In this document: positions 31,619 through 64,000 of the stretch, one piece after another
Layout of the letters: every line of letters starts with the position of its first letter
Numbering within the stretch: position 1 is the first letter of the stretch
Source: Polyangiales bacterium
GTDB taxonomy: Bacteria > Myxococcota_A > Polyangia > Polyangiales > Polyangiaceae
Assembly: GCA_038231275.1 (NCBI GenBank)
Contig: JBBRLQ010000022.1
Coordinates: 67,539 to 131,538 of the forward strand
DNA length: 64,000 nucleotides
Reading direction: 5' to 3'
Position numbers and translations under genes: made by a program
Notes under the pieces: model-generated
Told to the model about the DNA's origin: nothing
The model's input: only the letters and a program-made list of their open reading frames with translations
Databases searched by the model: none

Positions 31619-33067
31619 ATGTCCATGACCCAGGCCCAGAACCACGGAGGACCCCCGGTTCGCGAGGGAGAGATCCTCGCGGGGAAATACCGCGTGGAGC
31701 GCGTCCTCGGTCAGGGCGGAATGGGCGTCGTGGTCGCGGCGATGCACCTGCAGCTCGAGAGGCGCGTCGCGCTGAAGTTCGTCCTCCCCGAGGCGATCCA
31801 GAGCCCCGAGGCCACCGAGCGCTTCGCCCGCGAGGCCCGAGCCGCCAGCAAGCTGCAGAGCGAGCACGTCGCGCGCGTCCTCGACGTCGGCACCCTCGAG
31901 AGCGGCGCGCCGTACATGGTCATGGAGTACTTGGAGGGGCGTGACCTCGGCCAAGAGGTCGACGCACGTGGCCCCCTCCCCTTCGCCGAGGCGGCGGAGT
32001 TCGTGCTCCAGGCGTGCGAGGCGATCGCCGAGGCGCACGGGCTCGGCATCATCCATCGCGATCTCAAGCCGCAGAATTTGTTCCTGGCGCGGCGCGTCGA
32101 CGGGCGGCCGCTCGTGAAGGTGCTCGACTTCGGCATCTCGAAATTCAACGGCGCGCAATCGGGCGAGAACATGTCGCTCACCAAGACGCACGCGGTGATG
32201 GGCTCGCCGAACTACATGTCCCCGGAGCAGCTCCGCTCGGCGCGCGGCGTGGACGCGCGATCGGACATCTGGGCGCTCGGCGTCATCTTGTACGAGCTCC
32301 TGACCGGCAAGGTGCCGTTCGTTGCGACCAGCGTGACCGAGCTCTGCGCCATGGTGCTCCAGGATACGCCGCGTCCGCTCCGTGAGATTCGCCCCGAGGT
32401 CCCGCTCGCGCTCGGCGACGTCATCGCGAAGTGCCTGGAGAAAGACCCCAATCAACGCTTCCCGTCGATCGCGAGCCTGGCCCACGCGCTCGAGGCGTAT
32501 GCGCTGAGCTCGCAGTCCGGCGTCGGTCAGCGAATCCTCGCGGTCGCGCGGGAATCGAGCGCGCGCAACTTCGGGTCAGGGCCCCCGCCTGCGCCCGGCG
32601 CCACGTCGTCGCAGCAAGTCGCCGTCGCGGGTAGCCCCGGCAAGACGAGCGTCTCGTGGGCCGCGACGGAGCTGCAGAAGCCGGCGAAACGCGGCGTCGG
32701 CCTTTACGTCGCTCTCGGGAGTATCGGCGCGCTCGTCCTCTTCGGTGCGATCGCGCTGGTGGCGTGGCGCGTCCTCTTGCCGAAGTACCGGTCCGTCGCC
32801 GCGAGCCCGAGCCCGACGACGAGCGCAACGGCGCAGCTCGCCGCCGACAAGACCGACGCGGGAGCGATCGCAGCCGCCGCAACTGCTCCCGCGACGCCGG
32901 CCGATCCGACCGCAAATGCGGGGGGTACCGCGGTCGCACAGTCTCCCTCGGCGCCGACGCCGACCGCGAAGAAGCCAGGCGGCCCTGCGCCCCACCCTGC
33001 GGGTCCGACGACGGGAAAGCCGCCGAAGAAGAACCCGAACGACGACGCCCCCGACGAACGAAACTGA
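31619..33067 (+). CDS. Transmembrane Ser/Thr protein kinase
   Basis: GQGGMG, VALK, HRDLKPQN, DFG, GSPNYMSPE, SDIWALG; one TM helix; Pro/Ala-rich tail. Confidence 0.95.
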   Translation: MSMTQAQNHGGPPVREGEILAGKYRVERVLGQGGMGVVVAAMHLQLERRVALKFVLPEAIQSPEATERFAREARAASKLQSEHVARVLDVGTLESGAPYMVMEYLEGRDLGQEVDARGPLPFAEAAEFVLQACEAIAEAHGLGIIHRDLKPQNLFLARRVDGRPLVKVLDFGISKFNGAQSGENMSLTKTHAVMGSPNYMSPEQLRSARGVDARSDIWALGVILYELLTGKVPFVATSVTELCAMVLQDTPRPLREIRPEVPLALGDVIAKCLEKDPNQRFPSIASLAHALEAYALSSQSGVGQRILAVARESSARNFGSGPPPAPGATSSQQVAVAGSPGKTSVSWAATELQKPAKRGVGLYVALGSIGALVLFGAIALVAWRVLLPKYRSVAASPSPTTSATAQLAADKTDAGAIAAAATAPATPADPTANAGGTAVAQSPSAPTPTAKKPGGPAPHPAGPTTGKPPKKNPNDDAPDERN

Positions 33068-33079
33068 GAGGTCCCCGGT

Positions 33080-34126
33080 ATGAGTCGTTCGATCGCGCGC
33101 GCCACGGTCTTGTCGTTCTCTCTTTCGCTGGGCGTCTCGTTCGTCGCAGCCTCTGCGCTGTCGCCGTCCGTGGCCCATGCGCAAGGCGCCGGGAAGCAAG
33201 CCGCCGCACAGGCGCTCTTCGAGGACGCGAAGAAGCTCATGACGAAGGGCGATTACGGCGCCGCGTGCCCGAAGTTCAGCGACAGCCAGAACCTCGACCC
33301 GGCGCCGGGCACCCAGTTCAACCTCGCCAACTGCTACGAGAAGGCCGGACAGACCGCGAGCGCGTGGGCGACGTTCAAGAGCGCCGCCGCGTCGTACCGC
33401 GCACACAACCGCGCCGACTGGGAGACCAAGGCCCGCGATCGCGCGAACGCCATCGAGCCGAAGCTGTCGAAGCTCACCGTCGTCGTCCCCCCCGAGTCGG
33501 CGGTGCCCGGCCTCGAGGTTCGACGTGATGGACAGGCGCTGAGCGCGTCGGAGCTCGGGGCGCCGATCCCCGTCGATCCGGGCGACCACGCGATCGAGGC
33601 GTCGGCGCCGAACAAGAAGCCCTGGAAGTCGACGGCGAAGGTCGCGACCACCCCCGGCGAGCAGAAGTTTTCCGTCGGTCCGCTCGAAGCCGAGGCAAAG
33701 GCGCCCGTGGCCGTGACGCCGACGCCTGCGAGCACGACTCCGCCGGTGAAGGTCGCCGAGGACAAGCCGCCGCCGGCCAGCGGGAGCGGCCGCAAGACCG
33801 CAGCCTTCGTCGCGCTCGGGATCGGCGGCGCGGGGCTCATCGTCGGCGGCGTCACCGGCGTCATGGCCCTCTCCAAGAACAAGACCGCCAACGACGCATG
33901 TCCCAACGACGGCGCGTGCGCGAGCAAGGACGCCGTCGACGCGAACAGCTCAGCGAAGAGCCTCGCCACGATCTCGACCGTCGGCTTCATCGTCGGCGGC
34001 GTCGGCGTCGCGGCGGGCGCGGTGCTCCTCCTGACCGCGCCCAGCGCGCCGAAGACCGGCTCGATCCACGTCGTGCCGACCGCAGGCCCGACCGGCGGCG
34101 GGCTCGCGGCGTTCGGCACGTTCTGA
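33080..34126 (+). CDS. TPR + PEGA domain protein with C-terminal hydrophobic hairpin
   Basis: Signal peptide; ALF..A...ACPKF.DS..LDPAPGT.FNLA.CYE; PVDPGDH.IEASAP. Confidence 0.85.
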   Translation: MSRSIARATVLSFSLSLGVSFVAASALSPSVAHAQGAGKQAAAQALFEDAKKLMTKGDYGAACPKFSDSQNLDPAPGTQFNLANCYEKAGQTASAWATFKSAAASYRAHNRADWETKARDRANAIEPKLSKLTVVVPPESAVPGLEVRRDGQALSASELGAPIPVDPGDHAIEASAPNKKPWKSTAKVATTPGEQKFSVGPLEAEAKAPVAVTPTPASTTPPVKVAEDKPPPASGSGRKTAAFVALGIGGAGLIVGGVTGVMALSKNKTANDACPNDGACASKDAVDANSSAKSLATISTVGFIVGGVGVAAGAVLLLTAPSAPKTGSIHVVPTAGPTGGGLAAFGTF

Positions 34127-52857: not shown

Positions 52858-55800
52858 CTAGGAGTCGATCGAGATCCCGAGCTTCTCGCGGATCGCGAAA
52901 TAGTCCTCGCTGACGCTGAAGAGGACGATCTCCTTCATGCGCTCCTTGGTCGGAATGCTCGCGGCGTCCTCGGTCGCGCGGATGACCTCGGTCGCGAGCT
53001 GGAGATCGTGCGCGAGGACGAAGCCCGCGCGATCGGCGCTCAGATCGATCGAGGCGACCCACTTCTTCAGGTCGAGCTGATTGCCCGCCTGGAGGAGCTT
53101 GGATACCGCGCTGGCGAGCATCTCCCTCTGGACACCCTGGAAATCGGGCGCCATCGCCGCCATCGCCTCGGCCACCTGGCCCTGGAGATCCGGCGTGACC
53201 GGGAACTGCGGCACGCTCATCTTGATCGCCGCGAACAGCCACGCCTTCAGACCCGTGCCGGTCGGCACGAGGTGACGGATGTAGAAGCCCGGCCGGAAGT
53301 ACGTCATGTGACGCCCGGCGACGAACGCCATCGACTGCGTCGGCACCGCGCCCGCGAACGCCGCGCGCCCGATGACGATCGCCGGCGTGTGCGCATGGAG
53401 GAACCCGAGCGCCGACGGATCGTTGGTGTTTTGGAACACCAGCGGCGCCGGCATCCCGAGCGCGCCCTTCACGTAGTGGAGCGTCTGCGAGACCGGGTAC
53501 GGGTGGAGCGACGTGTCGATCGCGTAGCGCGGATCGTAGCCCATCGCCTCGACGGGCTGCGTGCGCGCGCGGATGATCGTCGGCTGGATGATCGCGAAGA
53601 TGCGGGTCAGCAGCGGATCGGTGTCCTGGTGCGTGAGGCGCGACCACTCGTCCTCGGTCATCGGCGTCTGCGCGGGGGCGGCGTTGTCGGCGCGGTGGCG
53701 CTTGAAGAAGCGCTCCTCGTCGGGCTCGGCGAGGTTGAGCACACTGAGCGCTTGGCAGAGGCACCACGCGGAGTCCGCGCGCTTGCTCTCGGTGTAGAGG
53801 CGACGGAGCAGCTTGTAGCTCTCCACGCGGTACGGGTTACGCCGCAGGATGGTGGCCTGCGCCTTGACCGCCTTGTCGAGGTACTGGTTCACGTCCGACG
53901 CGTAGAGCTCGGAGAGCGTGTCCATGCGCTCGCGGTTCTCCGGATCGAAGGCCTGCGCGGCCTCGAAGGCGTCGATCGCCATCTCCGGCTCGTTCAGGAA
54001 TTTGCGGTAGACATCGGCGAGGCGGTCCAGGATCTTCGGCAGCTGCTCGCGATCTTCGGCGGCCTTGGCGTGATCGAGCTGCACGTTGAGGAGCTTCTCG
54101 ACGCCGTCGTAGTCGCCTTTCCCGCTCTTCAGCTCGATGAGCTCTTCGAGCGCGCGCGTGAGGCCCTCGTCGTACTCGAGCGCCTTCTCGTAGTACGAGA
54201 TCGCCTGATCCACGTCGCCGATCTGCTTCTGCGACACGATGGCTGCAGTATGCATGTACTTGGCGCGCTGCTTGGGATCCTCGACGAAATCGGCGAGGCG
54301 CGTGACGACCTCGACGAGCTTCGCCCAGTCCTTCTCCTCCGAGTAGAGCTGCATCAGCTTGGTGAGGAGCTTACGGTCGTCCGGCCGCTCTTCGAGGGCC
54401 GCGGCGTAGGTCCTTTGCGCGCGTGCCTTGTCGCCGAGCTTCTGGAACTCGACCTCCGCGATTTCGAGCAGCAGCTCGAAGCGCTCCTGACCGCTCGCGA
54501 CCTCGAGGCGCTGGCGCTTGGTGCGGACGACCTCGTCCCAGAGCCCTTTGTCCTCGTACACGCGCGAGAGCGCGCGCAGCGGCATCGGGTTGGCGGGATC
54601 GAGATCGGCGGCGTCGCGAAGCGGCTTCATCGCTCCCTCGACGTCGCCCATCTTGCGGGCGGCCTCGCCGAGGCGATAGAGCGCGTCGGCGCGGGCGGTG
54701 AGCGGCAGGTCCTTGCCGTGCTTGGCGAGGAGCTCCTCGTACATCTTGTGCGCGGCCTTGGGATCGCCGTGATCGAAGACGACCTGCGCGGCACGCGCGA
54801 TCGACTCCGGCTCCTCGGGGGCGAGCTTCTCGAGCGCCTCGACCGCGGCGGCCATGCGCGGGTGGTTGATCGCCGGAATTTCCGGGGGCTTCGAGCCGCG
54901 CGAGCTCTGCGGGCCGTTGACGTCGTTCATGCTCGTCGTCGACGGCGGCGGCAGAATCGAGTTGCTGGTCTTGCCGAGCGACTCCATGAATTGAACGACG
55001 ATGCGAATGGCGTCCTCGCGCGGGAAGACCTGCGCGCGGCCGATGAGCGTCTCGTAGTGCTTGGCGGCCTCGATGAAGCGGCCGGCGGCGAACGCCATGT
55101 CGCCGAGGACCATGAGGGCGTCGGCGTTGGTGCCGTCGAGGTCGATCGCGCGCTTGGCGGCGAGCTCGGCCTTCTGTTTGTCGTCGAGGCGCACCATCTG
55201 CACCTTGGCGAGCTCCGCGAAGAGGCGCGCCTTGGCGAGGTCACCCTCGGCGAAGCCGATCTCCTTCTCGATGAGAATGACGACGCTGAGCGAGTCGCCC
55301 CGGTGATCGTAGGCCTTGCGGAGCGCGGAGCTGGCACCGGAGTTGTTGGGGTTCGCGTCGAGGGCCGCCTTGTAGCGCTCGATGGCGCCGTCCTTGTCGC
55401 CGCGCGCGTCGAGGAGACGTGCCGCGCGGATCCACTGCTCGGCCTTCGCCTCGGGCGTCGGCGCCTTGAGCGCGAGGGCCTCAATCGCCGACAGCGCGGC
55501 GTGGGAGTCGCCGGCGACCTCGCGCAGGTGCGCGAGCGCCTCGAGCGCGGCCGGGTGACCCTCCGATCGCTCGAGCACCGCCTCGTACGCGCGCGTCGCG
55601 CGCTCGGGAGAGCCAATCTGATCGGCGAGCGTGCGCGCCTTCGCGAGGAGGAGCTCCACCTTGCGCGGCTCGTCGGTCGTGACGCCCATGTGCTTCTCGT
55701 AGAGGCGCACCGCGTCCTCCCAGCGATCAAGCGCGCGGTAGTGACGCACGAGCGCGGTGAGCGCGCCGTCGTGCGACGGATCAATTTCGAGCACGTGCTC

Positions 55801-58332
55801 GAACGCGCGCGCGGCGGCAGCGTGATCGAGGAACTCCTCGTCGTGCAGTGCGGCCATGCGCTCGAAGAGGTTGATCTTCTGGCGCGGCGTCGCCGCCATC
55901 GCGACCTGGCGCTCGAGCGTCTCGAGGAGCTCGCGGTAGCGTCCAGTGCGGTTGTAGATGCGATCGAGGCCCTTCAGCGCGATCATGTTGACCGGCTCGA
56001 TGGCGAGCGCGGCCTCGTAGCGACGCGTCGCCTCGGGCAGATCGTTGAGGCTGTCCTCGAAGACCTCGGCGAGCTTGGTGAGGACGGCCGCCTTCTCGGA
56101 GCCGCGCTTCGCTTCGGCGCGACGCTCGAGGACCTTGGCGAGCGTCTGGAAATCGCCGGTCTTCTCGGCAATGCGGGCGAGCGCGTCGCCGGCCTTGGCG
56201 TGGCCCGGATCGTCGGCGACGACGGCCTGGTAAAGATCGCGCGCGCGGTTCGCGTCGTTGAGCTTCGTCTCGAAGAGCTCGGCGGCCTCGGCGCGCAGCT
56301 CGCGTGCGCGGGGGTGGCTGACGCTCGCGTCGGCGCGGGCGAGGAGGATCGCCGCAAGCTCCGGCCACTGCTGGGCGCGGCGGTAGATGACGGTGAGCCC
56401 CTCGGTCGCCTGCTCGTTGGCGGGGTCGGTCGCGAGGATTTGCTGGAACGCCATGAGCGCGAGATCGGCGCGGCCGGCCTTCGCGTCGTACCAGCGACCC
56501 ACGCGCGCCAAGAGCGCAGCGCGCTGCTCGACCGAGAGGAGCTCGGTCTTCAGCACTTCGGTCGCGGCGTCGAGCGTCTCGGTCCAGCGCTCGTGGCGCG
56601 AGCCCGCGAGGCGCTCGATCTCGGCCGCGTATCCGTCGTCGCTCGGCGACTCGCAGAGCGCGCGCGTGTACGCGACGAGGGCCTGATCGGCGTCCTCGAG
56701 CTCGTTCGCGTAGAGGTGGCCGATCTCGGCCATGATCCGCGCGCGATCGACGCCGGGCACCGCCAGCTCGCTGCGCTGGACGAGCATCTCGACGATCTCC
56801 TCGTACTTGCCGAGGGACTTGCGGACCTCCTCGAGCGCGACGCGGGCGATCTCGTCGTTCGGGTCGAGCTCCAGGATCTCGACGTACGCCTTCTCTGCCA
56901 TCTCCTTGTTCTTCGCTTGCGAGTCGAAGATGCGGGCGGCGCGGTAGAGGAGTGACTTTTTGGTCTCCTGCGCGTCGTCGTCGATCGGCGGCGCGTCCTC
57001 GAGGCCTTCGGCGCGCTCGCGGGCGGTGGGGACGGCGACTTGCTCGGACGCGGCGAGGAACGCCTCGGCGACCTTCTGCGCATCGGCCCCTTCGTCGACG
57101 GCCTTCTCGAGGCCCATCGCGGCCTCCGAGTCGTCGGGCGCTGCGATGAGCATGTCGATGAGTTGATCGACCTTCTCGGGCGCGATCGCCTTGCCGACGC
57201 GCATCGCACCGGAGGGACGACCGACGGCCTCGAGCGCCTCGAGGAGCGCCATCGCGTCCTTGGGGCGACGCGCCGGATCCTTGCCGAGGAGCGCGAGGAC
57301 GAACTGATCGACGTCCTTCGAGACCCAGCCGCGCGGCGCCTTCGCGCTCGGCGGCTCCGGCTCCTTCGAGAGGTGCGCGAACGCCGCATCGGTCGCGTTC
57401 TCCGCCGTGTGGAAGACGGCCTTACCGCTGAGGAGCTCGTACGCCACCGCACCGAACGCGTACACGTCGCTGCGCGGATCGGCGCCGCGGCCGCGAATGA
57501 GCTCGGGCGCGACGGTCTTGGGCGAGCCGAAGACCGCGAGGAGGCCGGTGTGCCCGTTCGCGGCGACACTGCGCTGGCGCAGGCGGTCGGTGCCGAAATC
57601 GATGAGGGTCACTTGCGGATCGGCGCCGGGGACCTGGTTCTTGCCGACGAGGATGTTCTCGAGCTTCACGTCGCCGTGGACGAGGTGCGCCTTGTGCAGC
57701 GCGGCGAGCGGCTCGAGGATGCCCTGGAAGAGCGGCTTCAGCTCGCTCATGTGGAGCGGCCCGGTGCGCGCGAAGCGCTGGCTCAAGGGCTGCGCGTCGA
57801 CGAACTCGTACGCGACGAAGAATGTCCCGTCCGGCAGCTCGCCGGCGGAGAGCGCCTTGGGCAAGCCCGCATGCTCGACGGTGGCGACGAGTCGGTTGGC
57901 GGTGAGGAAGCGATGCACGGCGCGGCGATCACGCGACGCCTCCGCGCGGAGGACCTTCAGCGCGAACTGCTTCTCGCCGAGGAGCGCGAGGTACACGGTG
58001 CCGAGATCGCTCTGGCCGATCTTCTTCTGGATGCGGAAGCCGCCCATCTCGCTGCCGATGGCGAGCTCGTCTTTGCCGATGAGCGCGGCGATGTCACGCA
58101 CGCGCGGATCGACCTCACGCTTGCTGACGAGGAGAACGTCCACGAGGGCCTCGATGCGATCGCCGTCCATGCAGCGCTCGGTGAGCGCGCGCGCGAAGCT
58201 GGCCTTCGCGCTGGAGCCGCCGACCTCGACGGGATCGAGCCCGAGAAGCTCTCGGCTCATCGACGTCATTTCCTCGAGCGAAAAAAGGCGCTCGAGCTCA
58301 CCGCGGAGAATTTCGATCGTGGCGTGTGACAT
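52858..58332 (-). CDS. Giant cytoplasmic protein: N-terminal helical domain + Ser/Thr kinase-like domain + extensive TPR array
   Basis: ALK, HGDVKLEN, DFG, APE, SDVYAFG; about 1200 aa of TPR-like repeats; C-terminal SADRAG domain. Confidence 0.88.
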   Translation of the reverse strand: MSHATIEILRGELERLFSLEEMTSMSRELLGLDPVEVGGSSAKASFARALTERCMDGDRIEALVDVLLVSKREVDPRVRDIAALIGKDELAIGSEMGGFRIQKKIGQSDLGTVYLALLGEKQFALKVLRAEASRDRRAVHRFLTANRLVATVEHAGLPKALSAGELPDGTFFVAYEFVDAQPLSQRFARTGPLHMSELKPLFQGILEPLAALHKAHLVHGDVKLENILVGKNQVPGADPQVTLIDFGTDRLRQRSVAANGHTGLLAVFGSPKTVAPELIRGRGADPRSDVYAFGAVAYELLSGKAVFHTAENATDAAFAHLSKEPEPPSAKAPRGWVSKDVDQFVLALLGKDPARRPKDAMALLEALEAVGRPSGAMRVGKAIAPEKVDQLIDMLIAAPDDSEAAMGLEKAVDEGADAQKVAEAFLAASEQVAVPTARERAEGLEDAPPIDDDAQETKKSLLYRAARIFDSQAKNKEMAEKAYVEILELDPNDEIARVALEEVRKSLGKYEEIVEMLVQRSELAVPGVDRARIMAEIGHLYANELEDADQALVAYTRALCESPSDDGYAAEIERLAGSRHERWTETLDAATEVLKTELLSVEQRAALLARVGRWYDAKAGRADLALMAFQQILATDPANEQATEGLTVIYRRAQQWPELAAILLARADASVSHPRARELRAEAAELFETKLNDANRARDLYQAVVADDPGHAKAGDALARIAEKTGDFQTLAKVLERRAEAKRGSEKAAVLTKLAEVFEDSLNDLPEATRRYEAALAIEPVNMIALKGLDRIYNRTGRYRELLETLERQVAMAATPRQKINLFERMAALHDEEFLDHAAAARAFEHVLEIDPSHDGALTALVRHYRALDRWEDAVRLYEKHMGVTTDEPRKVELLLAKARTLADQIGSPERATRAYEAVLERSEGHPAALEALAHLREVAGDSHAALSAIEALALKAPTPEAKAEQWIRAARLLDARGDKDGAIERYKAALDANPNNSGASSALRKAYDHRGDSLSVVILIEKEIGFAEGDLAKARLFAELAKVQMVRLDDKQKAELAAKRAIDLDGTNADALMVLGDMAFAAGRFIEAAKHYETLIGRAQVFPREDAIRIVVQFMESLGKTSNSILPPPSTTSMNDVNGPQSSRGSKPPEIPAINHPRMAAAVEALEKLAPEEPESIARAAQVVFDHGDPKAAHKMYEELLAKHGKDLPLTARADALYRLGEAARKMGDVEGAMKPLRDAADLDPANPMPLRALSRVYEDKGLWDEVVRTKRQRLEVASGQERFELLLEIAEVEFQKLGDKARAQRTYAAALEERPDDRKLLTKLMQLYSEEKDWAKLVEVVTRLADFVEDPKQRAKYMHTAAIVSQKQIGDVDQAISYYEKALEYDEGLTRALEELIELKSGKGDYDGVEKLLNVQLDHAKAAEDREQLPKILDRLADVYRKFLNEPEMAIDAFEAAQAFDPENRERMDTLSELYASDVNQYLDKAVKAQATILRRNPYRVESYKLLRRLYTESKRADSAWCLCQALSVLNLAEPDEERFFKRHRADNAAPAQTPMTEDEWSRLTHQDTDPLLTRIFAIIQPTIIRARTQPVEAMGYDPRYAIDTSLHPYPVSQTLHYVKGALGMPAPLVFQNTNDPSALGFLHAHTPAIVIGRAAFAGAVPTQSMAFVAGRHMTYFRPGFYIRHLVPTGTGLKAWLFAAIKMSVPQFPVTPDLQGQVAEAMAAMAPDFQGVQREMLASAVSKLLQAGNQLDLKKWVASIDLSADRAGFVLAHDLQLATEVIRATEDAASIPTKERMKEIVLFSVSEDYFAIREKLGISIDS

Positions 58333-58503
58333 TGCTAGTTACCCCTCGCAAAACCCGTGAGAAAACGAATGCCTCACGTACCGCGGGCGGGGCCCTTTGC
58401 CACGACTTTTTGTGTAGTTTTGCGCTCTGAGACGCACGCGAAACCAGCGCGTACGCACATTGGACTACACGACCTCGCGACGGGCTTGGGCTCCGGGGCG
58501 CGA

Positions 58504-59496
58504 TCAGGGCGTGTACTTGGTGCGCAAGTAGGCTTCGAGCGTCGCGATGTCCGCGTCGGAGAGCGCGCCGCGGTACGCCACGATCTCGGCGATCTCGCCG
58601 TGCAAAAGCTGGAGGGAGCCGTCGCGCGAGCCGATGAAGACCGGCTGCCCGCCCGTGCTCACGTCGACCGCGGCGATCGTCGCGGCCGTGATGGCGCCGT
58701 CGACCCGCGCCTCGAGCGTGGTCTGCCCGACGCGGCGCGTTCCGTAGACGCGGAACGTTCCGTCGTTCAGACCGTCGGCCTTGCTGTTGACCCACCCGCG
58801 CGGGGTGTCGTCGGGCGTCTTCACCTGGACGAGGAGATTCGAGGTCGCGGAGCCTGCGATCGAGTTCGCGAACAGGGCGACGCCGGGGTACGGGTACGCG
58901 GGCGTGCCCTTCGTCCAAAGCGCGCCGTAGCCCACGACGTCGTCGGTCGACGGCGTATTGGTGTACTCTGCAACTATTTCGATCGTGTAGTCGTCGAGGC
59001 CCCAGCGCAGCGAGGCGGCGTCGGCGAGGGCGAGGCCCGACGCGGCCCCGTCGAACGCGATCGTCGGCTTCTTCGCGAGGGCGCCGGGATGCACCGACGG
59101 TTGCCGCGCGGTGACGGTCTGCGCGGCGTCGTTGCCGCGACCCGATTGGTCCGCCCAGAGCGACACCTTGCCGGCGGCTTGCGTGACGCCCCTGCTCGCG
59201 TCGAGCCACACCACGAGGCCCGCGCCGAGCGACGCCGGCGTGAACGGACCCGGCTCGGTCGCGTCGGGCCCCGCCTCGGTGGCCGCCGCGCCTCCGCCCG
59301 AATCGCCGGCGTCCTCCGCGGAGACGGCGGGGGCTCCTGCTTCGGAGACGGGGGCGGCGCCCGGAGTCGCGGCCGGATCGGACGGCGCGCCGGCGTCGGA
59401 GGCGCCTTCGTTCAACGTTTGGAACCCGGCGACCAGAGAGCAGGCGCTCGACGCGGCGCTCGCGAGGACCAGGACCATGCAGGCGGCGCTCCTCAT
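58504..59496 (-). CDS. LamG/concanavalin-like domain lipoprotein
   Basis: SSAC lipobox; LVVWLDA...V..WADQSGRGNDA, FDG, GEIAEIVAY..ALS....LEAYL..KY. Confidence 0.85.
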   Translation of the reverse strand: MRSAACMVLVLASAASSACSLVAGFQTLNEGASDAGAPSDPAATPGAAPVSEAGAPAVSAEDAGDSGGGAAATEAGPDATEPGPFTPASLGAGLVVWLDASRGVTQAAGKVSLWADQSGRGNDAAQTVTARQPSVHPGALAKKPTIAFDGAASGLALADAASLRWGLDDYTIEIVAEYTNTPSTDDVVGYGALWTKGTPAYPYPGVALFANSIAGSATSNLLVQVKTPDDTPRGWVNSKADGLNDGTFRVYGTRRVGQTTLEARVDGAITAATIAAVDVSTGGQPVFIGSRDGSLQLLHGEIAEIVAYRGALSDADIATLEAYLRTKYTP

Positions 59497-60293
59497 GCGA
59501 GGTGCCTGTGCAGGCTCGTGGGGAGCCGACTGGCGGCGAGAGCCATAAGGCTGTCCAGCTCGCGGTCCTCGACGCCGAGGCGTCCCTTCAGGCGAAGGCG
59601 CGTCTCCTCGAGGATGCGCTCGCGGGCGTGGGCCAGCCATCGCGCCGCAGTCGCGCGGCTGACGCGGTAGGCGGCGCCGACCTGCTCGATGGTGAGGCCG
59701 TCGAGGTAGTGCATGCGGAGCACGTTGCGCTCGTCGGCCGTGAGCGTCCCGAGGGTCGCCACGAAGGCCTCGCGGAGATCGGCGGCGTAGCGGCGCTTCA
59801 GGAGCTCCATCTCGGGATCGGCGCCGGGCGCGCGGAGATCGAGCGTGCCTTCGTCGCCGGAGGTCGCGCGGGTGCGACGGGCGTGGCGGATCGCGGCGCG
59901 CACGGCGGAGACACGCACCCACGCACCGAGCGGGCCACGACCGCTGTACGCGGAGATCGTCGGCGGTCGCCCGGCGTGGCCGGTGAGCAGCGCCTCGCGG
60001 ACGATCTGACGGACCTCGTCCTTCGACTCCGCGGTCCGCGCGACGCGGCCGATGTGGGCGTCGAGGCCGGTGACGTACGCGCGCTCGAACGTGGCGACGG
60101 CGTTCGGGGCGTCGTGCGCGCAGGCGCACGCGAGGAAGAGGTCGGCGCCGTGCAGCCGGCGGAGGGCCTCGGCCGACGGCGCCTCCTCGCCGACGCGCGC
60201 AACGACATGCCGGGCGAACACGGCAGGATCGAGGGCAATTTCCGGCCAAGCGGCCCGTGACGCGTCGACGAACGAAGCGAGCGCCTCTACCAT
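59493..60293 (-). CDS. RNA polymerase sigma-70 factor, Myxococcales-type ECF-like family
   Basis: LHGADLFLACACA, YSGRGPL..WVR, DPE..LLK..Y, L...ERNVLRMHYLDGLTIE.VG..YRVSRATAARW. Confidence 0.85.
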   Translation of the reverse strand: MVEALASFVDASRAAWPEIALDPAVFARHVVARVGEEAPSAEALRRLHGADLFLACACAHDAPNAVATFERAYVTGLDAHIGRVARTAESKDEVRQIVREALLTGHAGRPPTISAYSGRGPLGAWVRVSAVRAAIRHARRTRATSGDEGTLDLRAPGADPEMELLKRRYAADLREAFVATLGTLTADERNVLRMHYLDGLTIEQVGAAYRVSRATAARWLAHARERILEETRLRLKGRLGVEDRELDSLMALAASRLPTSLHRHLA

Positions 60294-61147
60294 CGTCCCT
60301 CCAGGACCGCGCCGCCCAACGTCGGCGTGACGCGCAGCGACGCCGACCTGGACGCCATGCTCGGCGCGGGCCGAGACGTCGTCGGCGACGTCAAGAAGAG
60401 GACCGCACCCACCGCGAGCGCCACGCCCCCTGAGGCCAACGCGATGGTCGATCCGAGCGCAGCGCTCCGTCCGGCGTCGTCGAGATCGCGCGCCGCCCCG
60501 ATGCGATCGGGCGCGCAGGTAGGGTACGCCGGGCACGTCGACGAGAGATCCGAGCGCCTCGAAAGGGCGACGCCCCCGAGCCATGCGCCGGCCGCGACGC
60601 CAACCACGCCCGCGACGAACGTGCCCGCGCCGGCCCAACGCCGCGTGTCCCATCCGTAGGACGGCGCGTACTCCGCGCGCTTCGCGGTCGTCGCGGGTGC
60701 GAATGGCGCCGGAGTCGCGGCCGGAGCGATCGGCGTTTCGCTCTTCGCCGGCGGAGCCTCGAGGTCCGCCCGCGGCGCTTCCACGACGGGAACGCGCGGC
60801 TCGAGCGCGCTCGCCCTCTCGCGGGCGGCGCGCGCGCGCTCCGATTTTCCGGCCGCCTGCGCGGCGACCGCGACCTGCCGAAAGACACGGAGCGCGGCGG
60901 CGAGCTTCCCGCTCCGCTCGTAGCAGACGCCCAGGTTGAACTCCGTCCCGAGCGCGGGATCGAGCCGCTCGCTCTCCTCGAGCTTCGCGCACGCCTCCGC
61001 GTAGCGCCCGGCGTCCACGAGCGGCGTCGCCGCGCGAAAGAGCTGCTCGGCGCGGGTCTCGCGCGACGGCTCGTCGGTCGGCTGCGCGGCGGCGGCGCCC
61101 GGCGCGCATGCGAGGGCGATGAGGAGCGGGAGGACGCGCCTATCCAT
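60287..61147 (-). CDS. TPR protein with C-terminal hydrophobic hairpin (kinase partner type)
   Basis: Signal peptide; ACAKLEESERLDPALGTEFNLGVCYE; homologous to 33080-34126. Confidence 0.82.
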   Translation of the reverse strand: MDRRVLPLLIALACAPGAAAAQPTDEPSRETRAEQLFRAATPLVDAGRYAEACAKLEESERLDPALGTEFNLGVCYERSGKLAAALRVFRQVAVAAQAAGKSERARAARERASALEPRVPVVEAPRADLEAPPAKSETPIAPAATPAPFAPATTAKRAEYAPSYGWDTRRWAGAGTFVAGVVGVAAGAWLGGVALSRRSDLSSTCPAYPTCAPDRIGAARDLDDAGRSAALGSTIALASGGVALAVGAVLFLTSPTTSRPAPSMASRSASLRVTPTLGGAVLEGRW

Positions 61148-62792
61148 GACGATCCGACGCGAGCCCGGACGGGGCGCTCGGGGTGGAAGCGGGCGGCGTC
61201 GGAGGAGGAGGAGACGGCGGATCGGCGACGGCAGGGCTCGGCGTCGTCGGAACGGTGGTCGCCGCGGGAGAGGCCGCGCGAGCTCTCGGCGTGGAGATCG
61301 GCGTCGAGTTGGACGTCGAGCCGGACGCGCGAAGCGGCTTGCTCGCGGGGCGCGACGACGGCGACGGGATCGTGACCGCGGCCGACGTCGGAGGCGGCTC
61401 CGGCTCCGCGAAGGCGAACGGAGGATCGGGCGCGATCGTCGGCGTCGGCTGCTCGGCGATCACGGTCCCCGCGAGCGCCTGGCCGCGGTGAGCGCTCGCC
61501 GCGCCGGCCAGAATGGCAGCGGCCGCAAGCGCCCCCGCGACGCCAAGGACGACGGCTCGCGCACGTCGCATCGGGCGCCTCAGGGAAGGCGGCATCGGAA
61601 GCGAAGGCGAGGTCGCCGCAAAGGCGAACGGCGTCGGCACGAGCGTCGGGTTCACGAGCGTCGCGGCCTCCGAGTCGGCCTCGGCGTCGCCAAGCGCCGC
61701 GCGCAGCGCGGCTATGAGCTCGAGGACGCTCTGGAAGCGCGCGGACCGATCGCGCAGGAGGCACCTCCGCACGACCGCGGCGATGGGGCGCGGCGTACCC
61801 GGGCGCTCGATCTCCAACGAGACCGGCGGCTCGAGCAGGATCCGCGCGCACAAGAGCTGGAGGTTCGCCGCGCGAAACGGCGGCTGGCCGGCGATGAGCT
61901 CGTGCAGGCACGCGCCGAGCGCCCACACGTCCGTGCGGGGATCGACGTCGCGCGCGGACTCAATTTGCTCCGGCGACATGTAGTGCGGCGACCCGATCAT
62001 CGCGTGCGCGCGTGTCAGACCCGACTCACCGGCGGCGAGCGCGCCGTCGAACGTCTTCGCGAGGCCGAAGTCGACGACCTTGACGGTGCGTGCTCCATTC
62101 CCGGTCCACGCGAGGAAGATGTTCGCCGGCTTCAGATCGCGATGCACGATGCCGTGTGCGTGCGCCTCGGCGATCGCCTCGCACGCGTCGAGGATGTAAC
62201 CCACCGCTTCGCCGATGGGCAGCGGACCAAGCGCGTCGAGGACGCGCCCGAGGTCCATCCCCTCGAGGTACTCCATCACGATGTAGGGCGCCCCCGACTC
62301 GAGACGCCCCACGTCGAGGACGCGCGCCGCGTGCTCTCCGGTGAGCCGCGCCGCCGCCATCGCCTCACGCGCGAACCGGCGCGCCGCGTCCTCGTCGTCC
62401 AAGAGCTCGTCGTGCATCGTCTTGATCGCGACGCGCGTGCCGAGGACGGCGTGGCGCGCGGCGACGACGAGCCCCATTCCTCCACGACCCAGGATGCGAT
62501 CGACCGTGTATTTGCCGGCGAAGAGGCTCCCCACCTCGACAGGCGTGGCGGCAGGGCGCTGGTTCCTCGGCTCGCCTCCCGTGACGCGCGACGCCCCGTT
62601 CGCCACGGCAGCGCGGCACTCGTCGCACAGATCGAGGTGCGCCTTCACGACGCGCTCGCGGTCCTCCGTGAGGTCTCCCTCCAAGAAGAGGACGACCTCT
62701 TCGTCGCCGACGCAGTCCTCCGCGAACGACGGCGCCGTGCTCGGTGCGAAGCGCACGCGGAGCGTAGACGTGTGGTGCGCTCCCATCCTCAC
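61140..62792 (-). CDS. Transmembrane Ser/Thr kinase with N-terminal ZAS (zf-HC2) finger
   Basis: C...AHLDLCDECR; GRGGMG, VAIK, HRDLKPAN, DFGLAK, GSPHYMSPE; TM helix and Pro/Thr tail. Start may be 62786. Confidence 0.92.
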   Translation of the reverse strand: MRMGAHHTSTLRVRFAPSTAPSFAEDCVGDEEVVLFLEGDLTEDRERVVKAHLDLCDECRAAVANGASRVTGGEPRNQRPAATPVEVGSLFAGKYTVDRILGRGGMGLVVAARHAVLGTRVAIKTMHDELLDDEDAARRFAREAMAAARLTGEHAARVLDVGRLESGAPYIVMEYLEGMDLGRVLDALGPLPIGEAVGYILDACEAIAEAHAHGIVHRDLKPANIFLAWTGNGARTVKVVDFGLAKTFDGALAAGESGLTRAHAMIGSPHYMSPEQIESARDVDPRTDVWALGACLHELIAGQPPFRAANLQLLCARILLEPPVSLEIERPGTPRPIAAVVRRCLLRDRSARFQSVLELIAALRAALGDAEADSEAATLVNPTLVPTPFAFAATSPSLPMPPSLRRPMRRARAVVLGVAGALAAAAILAGAASAHRGQALAGTVIAEQPTPTIAPDPPFAFAEPEPPPTSAAVTIPSPSSRPASKPLRASGSTSNSTPISTPRARAASPAATTVPTTPSPAVADPPSPPPPTPPASTPSAPSGLASDRHG

Positions 62793-62868
62793 TCTTGGTC
62801 CTACGCCCGTCGCGTGTGTTCGATTTCTCGCACGAACGATTTATTTCGATGAGGGCGCTCGAGCGCGC

Positions 62869-62894
62869 GAGACGGCCGCGAATCCGCGTCCTCA
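62869..62894 (+). promoter_or_regulatory. Candidate ECF-type promoter GAGACG-N15-CCTCA (copy 1)
   Basis: Ends 8 nt before ATG 62903; same motif and spacing at 63197. Confidence 0.45.
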
Positions 62895-62902
62895 AGCGGA
62901 TC

Positions 62903-63154
62903 ATGAAGACCATTTCATCGTCCGCCGTTTTTCTCGCCATCGCGTTGCATACCCTGGGCTGCGGCTCGTCCAATGCGCCGCCCGAGCCCACGTCGAAGAG
63001 CGCGGAAGCCCTCGGCGGCGACTGCTCGGGAGCGCTGGGCGCGTGCTACGTCGCGTGCCAACAGGTCCTTCCCACTCCGACCGAAGGTTGCTTCACGCGC
63101 TGCGACCAGCTGTTCACGAAGTGCACCCAGCCGATGGAGGAGATCGAGCAGTGA
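62903..63154 (+). CDS. Small Cys-rich lipoprotein (CX6CX3C-X10-CX3CX6C)
   Basis: MKT...TLGC lipobox; six symmetrically spaced Cys. Confidence 0.7.
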   Translation: MKTISSSAVFLAIALHTLGCGSSNAPPEPTSKSAEALGGDCSGALGACYVACQQVLPTPTEGCFTRCDQLFTKCTQPMEEIEQ

Positions 63155-63196
63155 TCGCACTCCTCCTCTCGCGTCACCTTTCGCATCGCGAACGGT

Positions 63197-63222
63197 GAGA
63201 CGCCTGTCGGCCACGCGCCTCA
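63197..63222 (+). promoter_or_regulatory. Candidate ECF-type promoter GAGACG-N15-CCTCA (copy 2)
   Basis: Upstream of CDS 63287. Confidence 0.45.
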
Positions 63223-63286
63223 TCGTCATCGAGAGCAAGATCACGAGCCCTCAGCACCGATAAACGATCCCAAAACGGAGGTTTCC

Positions 63287-64000
63287 ATGCCTTTCCATCT
63301 TCACGACTTGGCAGTTCCTGTCGCAGCGATCCTCTGTGTTGCCGGATGTACCGCCGATGCCTCGACGCCGACTCCGACGCCGGCGCCGACCACCTCGTCG
63401 CCGTCCACCTCTGACACTTCCTCCACAATCCCGGCGACGCCGGAGACGACGGCGAGCCTCGGTGTCTCGTCGTGGGTCATCCGCGCGCGGGTGGGGAAAA
63501 GCGGAACGTTCGTGGTCACGACCGGAGTCGACGCGAAGGGCGCGGAAGTCACGCGTTGGTGGGGGATGCGGAGCGCGTCCAAGGGATTCCTCGTCGGCGA
63601 CGCCGCGCACGGGGTGGCGCTCATCGATGGGAACAGCACGTTGGTACGCTCCTCCATCCGCGGTCCCAACTTGGAGTTGTTGTCGCGTAGCGCAGGGGTG
63701 ATGCGCGCGGACGTCGAAAAGCATCGTCTCGAGGCGGCGGTAGAGTATGCGACTTGCGAGGAGGCGACGGCCGCTGCGGATGAGGCCGCTGCCCAACTTG
63801 CAATCGCGTTCGTGGGCCTTGCAGCATGCGCCTTGCTGCCTCCGCCCATCGATGCCTGCACCATTCCGGCGGCTGCACTGGTCGCTGCGGCCGAAGTTCA
63901 CCTCGCGTTCGCCGTAAGCGCGCGAAACACGGCGTGCCAGAACGGTGGCGGTGGCGGCGGTTGGGGCGGCGGCGGCGGCGGTTGGGGCGGCGGCGGCGGC
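63287..64000 (+). CDS. Lipoprotein with Cys-bracketed hydrophobic hairpin and Gly/Trp tail (3'-truncated by window end)
   Basis: Not in the ORF track because there is no stop in the window. GGAGG RBS; MPFHLHDLAVPVAAILCVAGC lipobox; open frame to the window end. Confidence 0.75.
   Translation, partial: MPFHLHDLAVPVAAILCVAGCTADASTPTPTPAPTTSSPSTSDTSSTIPATPETTASLGVSSWVIRARVGKSGTFVVTTGVDAKGAEVTRWWGMRSASKGFLVGDAAHGVALIDGNSTLVRSSIRGPNLELLSRSAGVMRADVEKHRLEAAVEYATCEEATAAADEAAAQLAIAFVGLAACALLPPPIDACTIPAAALVAAAEVHLAFAVSARNTACQNGGGGGGWGGGGGGWGGGGG

Follow-up and report, generated by a model that had tools for sequence, protein, structure and literature searches.

The kinase PknB of M. tuberculosis is described as phosphorylating the ZAS anti-sigma factors RshA and RseA, by which the ECF sigma factor is set free (PMC8999054, PMC13147305, and the supplement of PMC7826278). 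Kinase-linked ECF groups are treated in the main texts as having no anti-sigma factor (PMC7826278). The sigma factors of one such group, ECF43, are reported to lack the acidic DAED patch, with S/T in its place, and to require phosphorylation for binding to the core polymerase. Planctomycete kinases that carry HxxxCxxC at the N-terminus are listed, unclassified, as partners of ECF62 sigma factors in the supplementary table of PMC7406223, together with many ECF62-partner kinases that have no such motif, and the table states no function for the zinc finger. The zinc finger of these kinases is mentioned only in a paper supplement. The ECF62 sequence group itself has been reported as 100% Planctomycetes.

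Organization of the locus

The window analysed here, a stretch of 64,000 nucleotides from an uncultured Polyangiales bacterium, contains four overlapping genes, all on the minus strand. They encode a membrane Ser/Thr kinase with an N-terminal ZAS anti-sigma-like domain (548 aa, 61140..62786), an exported TPR-like membrane protein (286 aa, 60287..61147; TPR protein below), an ECF-type sigma factor belonging to TIGR03001 (266 aa, 59493..60293) and a lipoprotein with a ConA/LamG-like β-sandwich (58504..59496). The overlaps are 8 nt between the kinase and TPR genes (61140–61147), 7 nt between the TPR and sigma genes (60287–60293) and 4 nt between the sigma and LamG genes (59493–59496), and the gene models thereby reproduce exactly the architecture given in a first-pass annotation of this DNA. 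A GTG at 62792 is an alternative start of the kinase gene.

The pair of divergent lipoprotein genes named in the same annotation is present on the plus strand, the second being only lipoprotein-like. The first encodes a small Cys-rich lipoprotein of 83 aa (…LHTLGC; 62903..63154) and has a counterpart in G201, a genome of the same genus. The second (…CVAGC; 63287..>64000) is incomplete at the contig end and exceeds the cut-off for no family in Pfam or NCBIfam; both lipoboxes were judged by eye. The 116-bp intergenic region between the divergent genes (62787..62902) contains AT-rich blocks that are conserved in an alignment with the G201 orthologue. No sigma-70-type consensus was found in these 116 bp, and no sigma-specific promoter could be defined there.

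The sigma factor

The sigma factor matches TIGR03001 with 239.1 bits over profile positions 1–243 of 244 (NCBIfam cut-off 154.6), and the family named in the first-pass annotation is therefore the right one. It also scores above cut-off with TIGR02937 (52.3 vs. 42.9 bits), Sigma70_r4 (35.7 vs. 24.1) and Sigma70_ECF (25.6 vs. 21.1), and its profile matches solved ECF sigma factors. As in ECF (group 4) sigma factors, only regions sigma-2 and sigma-4 are present. The Pfam model Sigma70_r2 gave no match at E ≤ 0.1, so region 2 is divergent. Family members are extended by ≈45 aa N-terminally and by ≈35 aa C-terminally, with three near-invariant serines in the C-terminal extension (S248 in 34, S255 in 35 and S260, as S or T, in 34 of 36 sequences). 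In region 2.2 the residue at position 92 is acidic (D/E) in 28 of the 36 TIGR03001 sequences and that at position 93 in all of them.

The kinase and its ZAS domain

The catalytic domain of the kinase (aa 93–351; 61734..62510) matches Pkinase with 138.2 bits and is of the Hanks type, with the VAIK Lys, HRD, Asn, DFG and APE-Glu all kept. It is followed by a single transmembrane helix, recognized as a hydrophobic stretch (aa 411–432; 61491..61556), and by an extracytoplasmic tail of 116 aa (61143..61490) that is rich in P, S, T, and A and has neither a Pfam match nor a recognizable fold.

The ZAS domain precedes the catalytic domain (aa 20–70; 62577..62729). It matches zf-HC2 (PF13490) at aa 32–58 with 23.9 bits against a cut-off of 22.2, and its ligands C25…H50-x3-C54-x2-C57 follow the pattern C-x24-H-x3-C-x2-C. 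[quoted passage not shown] Searched against PDB sequences, the ZAS profile found 3hug_B (E = 2.6e-6), RsiW (5wuq_C, 5e-5), ChrR (2q1z_B, 2.6e-4) and DdvA (8rlz_A, 3.2e-4). We take 3hug_B to be RslA, its label in the PDB table being 'probable conserved membrane protein'. In entry 3hug the sigma chain is matched by our sigma profile and the anti-sigma chain by our ZAS profile.

A further 12 kinases of the genome with the N-terminal motif were compared with zf-HC2, of which six reached the cut-off, two fell below it and four were unreported. All 14 ZAS kinases of the genome keep the Lys, Glu, HRD, Asn, DFG, and APE positions. The family is large: at E ≤ 1e-10, 4,433 cluster representatives match the ZAS profile, which is biased towards kinases, and all 55 of the long matches examined were kinases.

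The HxxxCxxC finger had been read as a ZAS domain in the first-pass annotation, and both the zf-HC2 score and the matches to solved anti-sigma domains bear this out. Checking the remaining domains by HMM gave a mixed picture: Pkinase is matched and TIGR03001 also exceeds its cut-off, while TPR and Laminin_G_3 stay below theirs.

The TPR membrane protein and the LamG-like lipoprotein

The TPR protein is predicted from its AlphaFold2 model, Foldseek and alignments of its paralogs to have a signal peptide, 2.5 TPR-like repeats, a transmembrane helical hairpin and a C-terminal β-hairpin, with a cytoplasmic C205-x5-C211 loop predicted in the transmembrane hairpin. All Pfam TPR models score below cut-off, the best being TPR_2 (24.1 vs. 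27). The model has five helices at aa 29–118 with pLDDT 96–98, and its top Foldseek matches are all TPR proteins; none reaches E ≤ 0.001 (best E = 7.4e-3), and the match to 3ma5_A has a TM score of 0.82 and an rmsd of 1.7 Å.

There are 28 such paralogs in the genome, and 20 of them lie directly downstream of a co-oriented kinase gene, at a spacing of −17 to +58 nt. Most of these kinase-TPR pairs have no sigma gene. Fifteen of 18 scored TPR-paired kinases consist of a kinase domain, a transmembrane helix and a low-complexity tail of 76–120 aa. The functional partnership of kinase and TPR protein proposed earlier thus agrees well with a family that so often directly follows kinases with only a disordered outer tail of ≈100 aa. 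We define here this 28-copy family of TPR-like membrane proteins, unannotated so far and translationally coupled to kinases without a sensor domain.

The LamG-like lipoprotein scores 21.2 bits with Laminin_G_3, below the Pfam cut-off of 27.6. Its AlphaFold2 model is a β-sandwich (jelly-roll; pTM 0.71, with pLDDT mostly above 80 for aa 87–328), and the 244 PDB matches at E ≤ 0.001 found by Foldseek are all concanavalin-A-like lectin domains. The gene has no paralog elsewhere in the genome and was not found in the two genomes of the same genus that were searched; at the orthologous locus of G201 an unrelated Cys-rich lipoprotein occupies its position. Judged by these sequence comparisons the LamG-like gene appears to be an accessory specific to this locus, and the idea that it is the fixed first sensor of a relay is not supported.

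Linkage of ZAS domains and TIGR03001 sigma factors

The genome encodes 12 TIGR03001 paralogs, nine of which neighbour a kinase with an N-terminal C-x24-H-x3-C-x2-C domain. At a tenth, the ZAS domain of the neighbouring kinase follows the catalytic domain and precedes the transmembrane helix (hhalign 97%, E = 9.7e-11). Another paralog has no kinase and is adjoined by a divergent stand-alone ZAS gene of 54 aa (98.7%, E = 2.3e-16), and the last (L007) has no ZAS nearby.

Seen from the kinases, 14 of 262 kinase-domain loci in the genome have a ZAS domain and 248 do not. Within 3 kb of a TIGR03001 paralog we find 10 of the 14 and one of the 248, an unrelated giant kinase of this same locus (Fisher p = 3e-14, a value that overstates the case because the paralogs are not independent). 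No sigma-like ORF was found for the other four ZAS kinases in the 8–12 kb loci examined, which span ≈1.4–5 kb either side of the kinase gene and in one case (L018) end at the contig end. Among the nine pairs of the genome there is no co-variation of sigma and ZAS distances (r = 0.10, a value that 1566 of 5000 permutations reached); over all 27 pairs r is 0.38, reached by 0 of 5000, for which the common ancestry of orthologues can account.

Outside this genome, in 13 genomes from a 201-genome sample of the phylum, we considered all 22 TIGR03001 matches that exceed the cut-off, together with two loci of G201. A ZAS-kinase is adjacent to the sigma gene at 18 of these 24 loci. One locus has a 215-aa non-kinase ZAS protein, one a ZAS ORF ending 20 residues into the kinase domain, and one (L050) no ZAS near the sigma. 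The ZAS module tracks the sigma rather than the kinase, as it also occurs after the catalytic domain, in a stand-alone gene and in a non-kinase protein.

At the orthologous locus of G201 the order kinase-TPR-sigma is the same, the 8-nt overlap recurs and a small lipoprotein is again encoded divergently, with identities of 63% for the kinase, 51% for the TPR protein, 70% for the sigma and 44% for the small lipoprotein (L087:8657-8905, in the same divergent position). Among the 24 foreign sigma loci this is the only one with a TPR paralog, and a LamG paralog occurs at none of them. The neighbourhood survey thus upholds the co-occurrence of ZAS-kinase and sigma, but not the four genes as a conserved cassette. 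The cassette is a combination of two recurrent modules, (A) a sigma with a ZAS domain and (B) a kinase with a TPR membrane protein encoded after it.

A proposed sigma/anti-sigma switch inside a receptor kinase

We consider it fairly probable that the core of the locus is a sigma/anti-sigma pair whose anti-sigma domain lies inside a receptor kinase, with the kinase activity governing sigma release. By homology and gene linkage the cytoplasmic ZAS domain (C25/H50/C54/C57) would bind the co-encoded TIGR03001 sigma and keep it at the membrane, off RNA polymerase. As the kinase is catalytically intact, release would most likely be driven by phosphorylation and not by the usual proteolysis; candidate phosphosites are in the ZAS domain or linker, in the sigma (e.g., the conserved C-terminal serines), or in both. 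The outer part of this kinase contains no folded domain. It probably receives its input from the TPR protein, whose gene is linked and translationally coupled to its own and whose 28-copy family appears nearly always paired with such 'bare' kinases; the TPR protein might instead be a substrate of the kinase. The LamG-like and divergent lipoproteins would be locus-specific accessories, perhaps ligand-binding helpers or targets. Two parts of the first-pass interpretation survive here while its fixed LamG sensor and conserved four-gene cassette do not: the pairing of kinase and TPR protein, and the kinase itself as anti-sigma factor, for which the ZAS domain speaks by tracking TIGR03001 across paralogs and genomes, by standing alone and by its homology to solved anti-sigma domains.

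The kinase might also activate the sigma by direct phosphorylation as in ECF43, its ZAS-like N-terminus being a docking site for the substrate and not an inhibitor. Kinase-linked ECF groups are described in PMC7826278 as phosphorylation-regulated without anti-sigma factors. Experimental cases are EcfP/PknT and EcfK/PknS; PknS, as published, has an N-terminal region of ≈81 residues that is predicted to be a helical bundle of unknown role, and the serines S248, S255, and S260 would suit such a mechanism as well. However, the loss of the DAED patch that defines ECF43 is not seen in the TIGR03001 sigma factors, given their acidic positions 92 and 93, and stand-alone ZAS genes adjoin kinase-less sigma paralogs, which argues that the ZAS domain acts on the sigma without a kinase. 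We regard direct activation in place of inhibition as unlikely, although docking and inhibition may coexist and the two readings are compatible.

Much less probable is that the HxxxCxxC domain regulates the kinase that carries it, by sensing zinc or redox state, and makes no contact with the sigma, the kinase acting on the sigma or on other targets by another route. ZAS domains of the RsrA/RshA type do lose zinc upon oxidation (PMC8999054), and the four ZAS kinases without a nearby sigma gene and the missing co-variation within the genome fit this idea. Yet it leaves unexplained why ZAS kinases and not the others adjoin TIGR03001 sigma genes and why the same domain stands alone beside sigma paralogs, and the domain is homologous to the sigma-binding domains of solved sigma/anti-sigma complexes. 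Hardly credible to us is a juxtaposition that means nothing for regulation, or a phage-defence kinase of the PD-T4-6 type, the four genes being just packed together in both cases. The genome is rich in kinases, and PADLOC models for PD-T4-6 match the kinase at 2.2e-82, but these matches are confined to the generic catalytic domain, and the other five proteins have none; G201 keeps both the gene order and the 8-nt overlap, and the ZAS-sigma linkage is far above chance.

For the myxobacterial TIGR03001 family the evidence suggests, in contrast to the current description of kinase-linked ECF groups, that a bona fide anti-sigma domain is part of the partner kinase. Hanks kinases and ECF sigma/anti-sigma pairs, two of the main bacterial signalling systems, would then form one switch; they appear joined in one protein because the ZAS-kinase/sigma pairing recurs in this genome and in its relatives. 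More tentatively, and with more doubt than conviction, ZAS-kinase fusions could be a large overlooked class of receptor/anti-sigma factors made of a single polypeptide, in which an ECF-type sigma is freed by signal-induced phosphorylation and not by regulated proteolysis. Polyangia-like myxobacteria would have two-piece receptors of this class, a bare-tail kinase and an exported TPR(-PEGA) membrane protein that would pass periplasmic signals on to the kinase through its cytoplasmic H/C-x5-C loop. In that case, what has been missing from kinase-linked ECF groups as their anti-sigma factor would be their kinase. The ZAS domain placed after the kinase domain, the stand-alone ZAS genes and the ten pairs in one genome offer natural controls for the mechanism.

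Comparison with known systems

With the ECF62 systems our locus has only the kinase architecture in common; the present organism is a myxobacterium, of another phylum, and its sigma scores as TIGR03001. The ECF43 pairs EcfP/PknT of Vibrio and EcfK/PknS of Xanthomonas likewise have the gene of a transmembrane Ser/Thr kinase beside that of an ECF sigma, and in PknS a domain, predicted to be a helical bundle, precedes the kinase domain as it does here; PknS is not known to carry a zinc motif. Unlike ECF43, the TIGR03001 sigma factors retain the acidic pair.

An anti-sigma factor and a protein kinase in one protein are known from SpoIIAB/RsbW of Bacillus, as described for RsbW. Their fold, that of a GHKL ATPase, is unrelated, they act on group 3 sigma factors, and their kinase targets an anti-anti-sigma factor in a partner switch.

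[quoted passage not shown] It shares with them a helical N-terminal domain with significant profile matches and a gene that adjoins that of an ECF-type sigma. It differs in being the N-terminus of an active Hanks-type kinase (or, in one paralog, in following the catalytic domain), and release of the protease or redox type is not implied. Whereas PknB, a global kinase, is a different protein from its substrates RshA and RseA, here both functions would reside in one polypeptide dedicated to one neighbouring sigma.

Organization and domain content of the cassette

The genes for the kinase (61140..62786, −), the TPR protein (60287..61147, −), the sigma factor (59493..60293, −) and the LamG-like lipoprotein (58504..59496, −), as given by the gene models, overlap by exactly 8, 7 and 4 nt. 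These overlaps suggest that the four genes form a single operon with translational coupling. Two lipoprotein-like genes are transcribed in the opposite direction, one of 83 aa that diverges from the kinase start (62903..63154, +) and one that is cut by the contig end (63287..>64000, +), so that the arrangement described in the first-pass annotation was confirmed. The window is the final 64 kb of contig C22, in an assembly of 9.28 Mb and 164 contigs. The second divergent lipoprotein enters a Gly/Trp-rich repeat (GGGGGGW...) exactly at this end (63900–64000, +), and the repeat is probably the cause of the assembly break.

The kinase was recognized by Pfam both as Pkinase (138.2 bits) and as zf-HC2 (23.9 bits; cut-off 22.2). 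It has a single TM helix at aa 411–432, followed by a 116-aa outer tail rich in P, S, T and A, in which no recognisable domain was found. The sigma factor scores 239.1 bits against TIGR03001 (cut-off 154.6), and the family named for it in the first-pass annotation is therefore correct. Members of this family have an N-terminal extension of ∼45 aa, where an AWP motif is conserved, and a C-terminal extension of ∼35 aa beyond region 4.2 (aa 231–266 of the window sigma factor; 59496–59603, −), in which S248, S255 and S260 are nearly invariant.

The expected HMM confirmation was thus obtained for the kinase, the zinc finger and the sigma factor, but not for the TPR and LamG proteins, whose Pfam matches all fell under the cut-off. 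The AlphaFold2 model of the TPR protein shows helices at aa 29–118 (pLDDT 96–98) together with a C-terminal beta-hairpin and a TM helical hairpin. Foldseek placed it next to TPR proteins only, with no match at E ≤ 0.001. The LamG-like lipoprotein is modelled as a beta-sandwich, for which Foldseek gave 244 PDB matches at E ≤ 0.001, all of them concanavalin-A-like lectin domains; what these matches indicate is limited to a fold of the carbohydrate-binding type.

Downstream of the LamG gene, at a distance of 171 nt and in the same orientation, lies a gene for an 1824-aa Ser/Thr kinase with a very long TPR array (52858–58332, −). This kinase is without the ZAS motif and has no counterpart at the orthologous locus of the same-genus genome G201. 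A phage-defence identity of the cassette is disfavoured, as its PADLOC matches were to the generic kinase domain only. No Rfam families were found in 58000–64000.

The ZAS domain accompanies the sigma factor family

The genome contains 12 TIGR03001 paralogs and 262 kinase-domain loci. An N-terminal H-x3-C-x2-C motif is present in 13 kinases, of which nine are encoded within 3 kb of a sigma paralog. Two kinases near a sigma paralog lack the motif at this position: the unrelated 1824-aa kinase and the kinase of a second kinase-TPR-sigma cassette (L010:7910–9442, −; contig C5 of this genome, G000). In the latter, a natural domain-order variant, the ZAS domain lies between the catalytic domain and the TM helix (hhalign 97%, E 9.7e-11). 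One sigma paralog without a kinase has a divergent stand-alone ZAS gene of 54 aa only 37 nt away (98.7%, E 2.3e-16). A ZAS domain thereby adjoins 11/12 sigma paralogs; none was found within 3 kb of the remaining one (locus L007).

Kinases near a sigma paralog make up 10/14 of those with a ZAS domain vs 1/248 of those without (Fisher p = 3e-14, a value that overstates independence because the paralogs are related). All catalytic residues are kept in 14/14 ZAS kinases. Mirror-tree analysis of the nine sigma-ZAS pairs of this genome gave no co-variation (r = 0.10, reached by 1566/5000 permutations), and the r = 0.38 obtained with all 27 pairs is confounded by orthology. The ZAS kinases are scattered in the kinase-domain tree, the deep nodes of which are weakly supported; the window kinase has as its sister a TPR-paired kinase without a ZAS domain (support 0.94).

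Among 201 genomes of the phylum searched with the TIGR03001 family, 14 have members above the cut-off, with 12 copies here and 1–4 in the others. We examined 24 loci outside this genome, comprising all 22 foreign loci above the cut-off and the two best of G201. An adjacent ZAS-kinase is present at 18 of these. One further locus encodes a 215-aa non-kinase ZAS protein, and at another a ZAS open reading frame ends 20 residues into a kinase domain (L068:6713–7003, −), being a remnant of a kinase or else the product of a break in the assembly. Three loci (L055, L058 and L060) are on short contigs or at contig edges, and at L050 neither a ZAS-kinase nor another ZAS protein was found adjacent to the sigma gene.

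An alignment of 31 ZAS segments showed that H50, C54 and C57 are invariant, with the upstream ligand being Cys in 29/31 and His in 2/31. The ZAS profile matches the anti-sigma chains 3hug_B (E 2.6e-6), RsiW (5e-5), ChrR (2.6e-4) and DdvA (3.2e-4) in the PDB, and the sigma profile matches ECF sigma factors, including the partner chain of 3hug. The kinase is thus intact, and the ZAS domain fused to it shows homology to domains of proven sigma binding and a genetic link to a single sigma family. The proposal that the kinase itself doubles as the anti-sigma factor is well supported by comparative evidence, with the kinase as a candidate for that role.

Of 1.84 billion representatives searched, the ZAS profile matched 46,542 at E ≤ 0.001, of which 4,433 also pass E ≤ 1e-10. 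From the best 150 matches we checked the 55 proteins of at least 400 aa with a single matched stretch (N-terminal in most), and a Pkinase domain directly follows the ZAS domain in 55/55. The sensor parts of these proteins vary and include TPR_12, C-type lectin, GH6 and Laminin_G_3. Because the profile extends into the first kinase-domain residues, kinases are favoured among its highest-ranking matches; ZAS-kinase fusions are shown to be common, and the kinase share of all ZAS proteins is not deducible from such a list. The best matches also contain proteins of 380–640 aa with three to five tandem ZAS-like domains (P0132 and others).

The kinase-TPR module

Twenty-eight paralogs of the TPR protein were found in the genome, and 20 of them have a co-oriented kinase directly upstream. 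Eighteen of the 20 pairs were scored, leaving out the window's own pair and one on contig C25, in which the kinase match overlaps the TPR gene. Gaps range from −17 to +58 nt, and 15/18 kinases share the layout of kinase domain, TM helix and a low-complexity tail of 76–120 aa. Only three kinase-TPR pairs are linked to a sigma factor. A second pair is found in the window itself (31637–34123, +), with a kinase-domain match at 31637–32497 and a TPR paralog at 33110–34123 that begins 42 nt past the kinase stop.

No Pfam family covers the TPR protein family. Its database relatives, from Polyangiaceae, Sorangium, Chondromyces and similar taxa, are annotated as 'hypothetical', 'tetratricopeptide repeat' or 'PEGA domain-containing'. 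The TPR part and the membrane hairpin are separated by a beta-rich, PEGA-like domain in most paralogs (about 310–350 aa) and in the G201 orthologue (319 aa); the window protein (286 aa) is without this middle domain. In the loop between the TM helices (aa 191–212; 60512–60577, −), C205 and C211 are invariant in 24/24 paralogs, often with a His before them. As a K/R-rich stretch precedes it, the loop is probably cytoplasmic, and it may be a metal-binding or kinase-docking loop.

Conservation of the cassette and its accessories

At the orthologous locus of G201 (L087) the kinase, which includes the ZAS domain, is 63% identical, the TPR protein 51% and the sigma factor 70%, and the 8-nt kinase/TPR overlap is kept. 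The small divergent Cys-rich lipoprotein is also kept (44% identity). The LamG gene is absent from this locus. Between the TPR and sigma genes there is instead a 232-aa lipoprotein with 23 cysteines (L087:5213–5911, −), whose N-terminal ∼70 residues are similar to the start of the window LamG protein (39% over 74 aa, low-complexity); the globular part differs.

This genome encodes no paralog of the LamG protein, which was also not found in the two same-genus genomes and has only eight database relatives at E ≤ 1e-5, itself included. The ZAS-kinase P0257 carries an outer Laminin_G_3 domain but shows no significant similarity to the window LamG protein (E = 5), and is at most a hint of a LamG-kinase link. 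Apart from the G201 orthologue, neither a TPR nor a LamG paralog was found at the sigma loci examined in other genomes. The neighbourhood survey therefore upheld the co-occurrence of sigma factor and ZAS domain but not that of TPR or LamG proteins, and the conserved core is the sigma factor and the ZAS domain. The TPR partner goes with a kinase subfamily, and the lipoproteins are accessories that can be exchanged.

The divergent intergenic region (62787–62902) contains AT-rich blocks (TTCGATTTC, TTTATTT) in a genome of ∼70% G+C, and these are conserved between the window and G201. Because the block spacing differs by 5 nt between the two, no −35/−10 pair could be called. No sigma-70-type promoter was found in 58300–63400. 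Each paralogous sigma factor probably has its own promoter specificity.

Proposed mechanism and comparison with known systems

We propose that the ZAS domain binds the neighbouring sigma factor and keeps it at the membrane, and that kinase activity would free it by phosphorylation of the ZAS domain or linker, or of the sigma factor. Since the kinase itself lacks a sensor domain, the TPR partner could act as its input and set kinase activity through the TM region. The relay proposed earlier, from a LamG sensor via the TPR protein to the kinase, is thus retained only in its kinase-TPR link, given the pairing in the paralogs, and loses its LamG step.

Kinase-linked ECF groups are listed as ECF43, 59–62, 217, 267 and 283 and are typically without anti-sigma factors according to the main-text passages found (PMC7826278); one sentence of its supplement mentions an N-terminal zinc finger in ECF62 kinases of Planctomycetes. 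In a supplementary table of PMC7406223, some kinases are entered as anti-sigma candidates without classification. ECF62 partners and one ECF22 partner in this table have the N-terminal HxxxCxxC motif, many other kinases are without it, and the main-text passages found do not discuss these kinases. A 2026 paper on PknS/EcfK gives the role of an N-terminal helical bundle as unknown. Our literature search turned up neither a paper with a ZAS-kinase fusion interpreted as an anti-sigma factor nor one mentioning TIGR03001 by name. Assignment of the sigma factor to ECF283 seemed promising from the supplement text, but was dropped because the table of PMC7406223 has Actinobacteria under ECF283s1.

The ECF43 model, by which the sigma factor depends on phosphorylation because its acidic DAED patch is lost, does not fit, as the TIGR03001 family keeps acidic residues there. 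The sigma factor may be phosphorylated directly at other positions, with S248, S255 and S260 of the C-terminal extension as candidate sites. A parallel to the proposed phosphorylation-driven release of the sigma factor is offered, in the passages found, by the action of PknB on RshA and RseA in M. tuberculosis.
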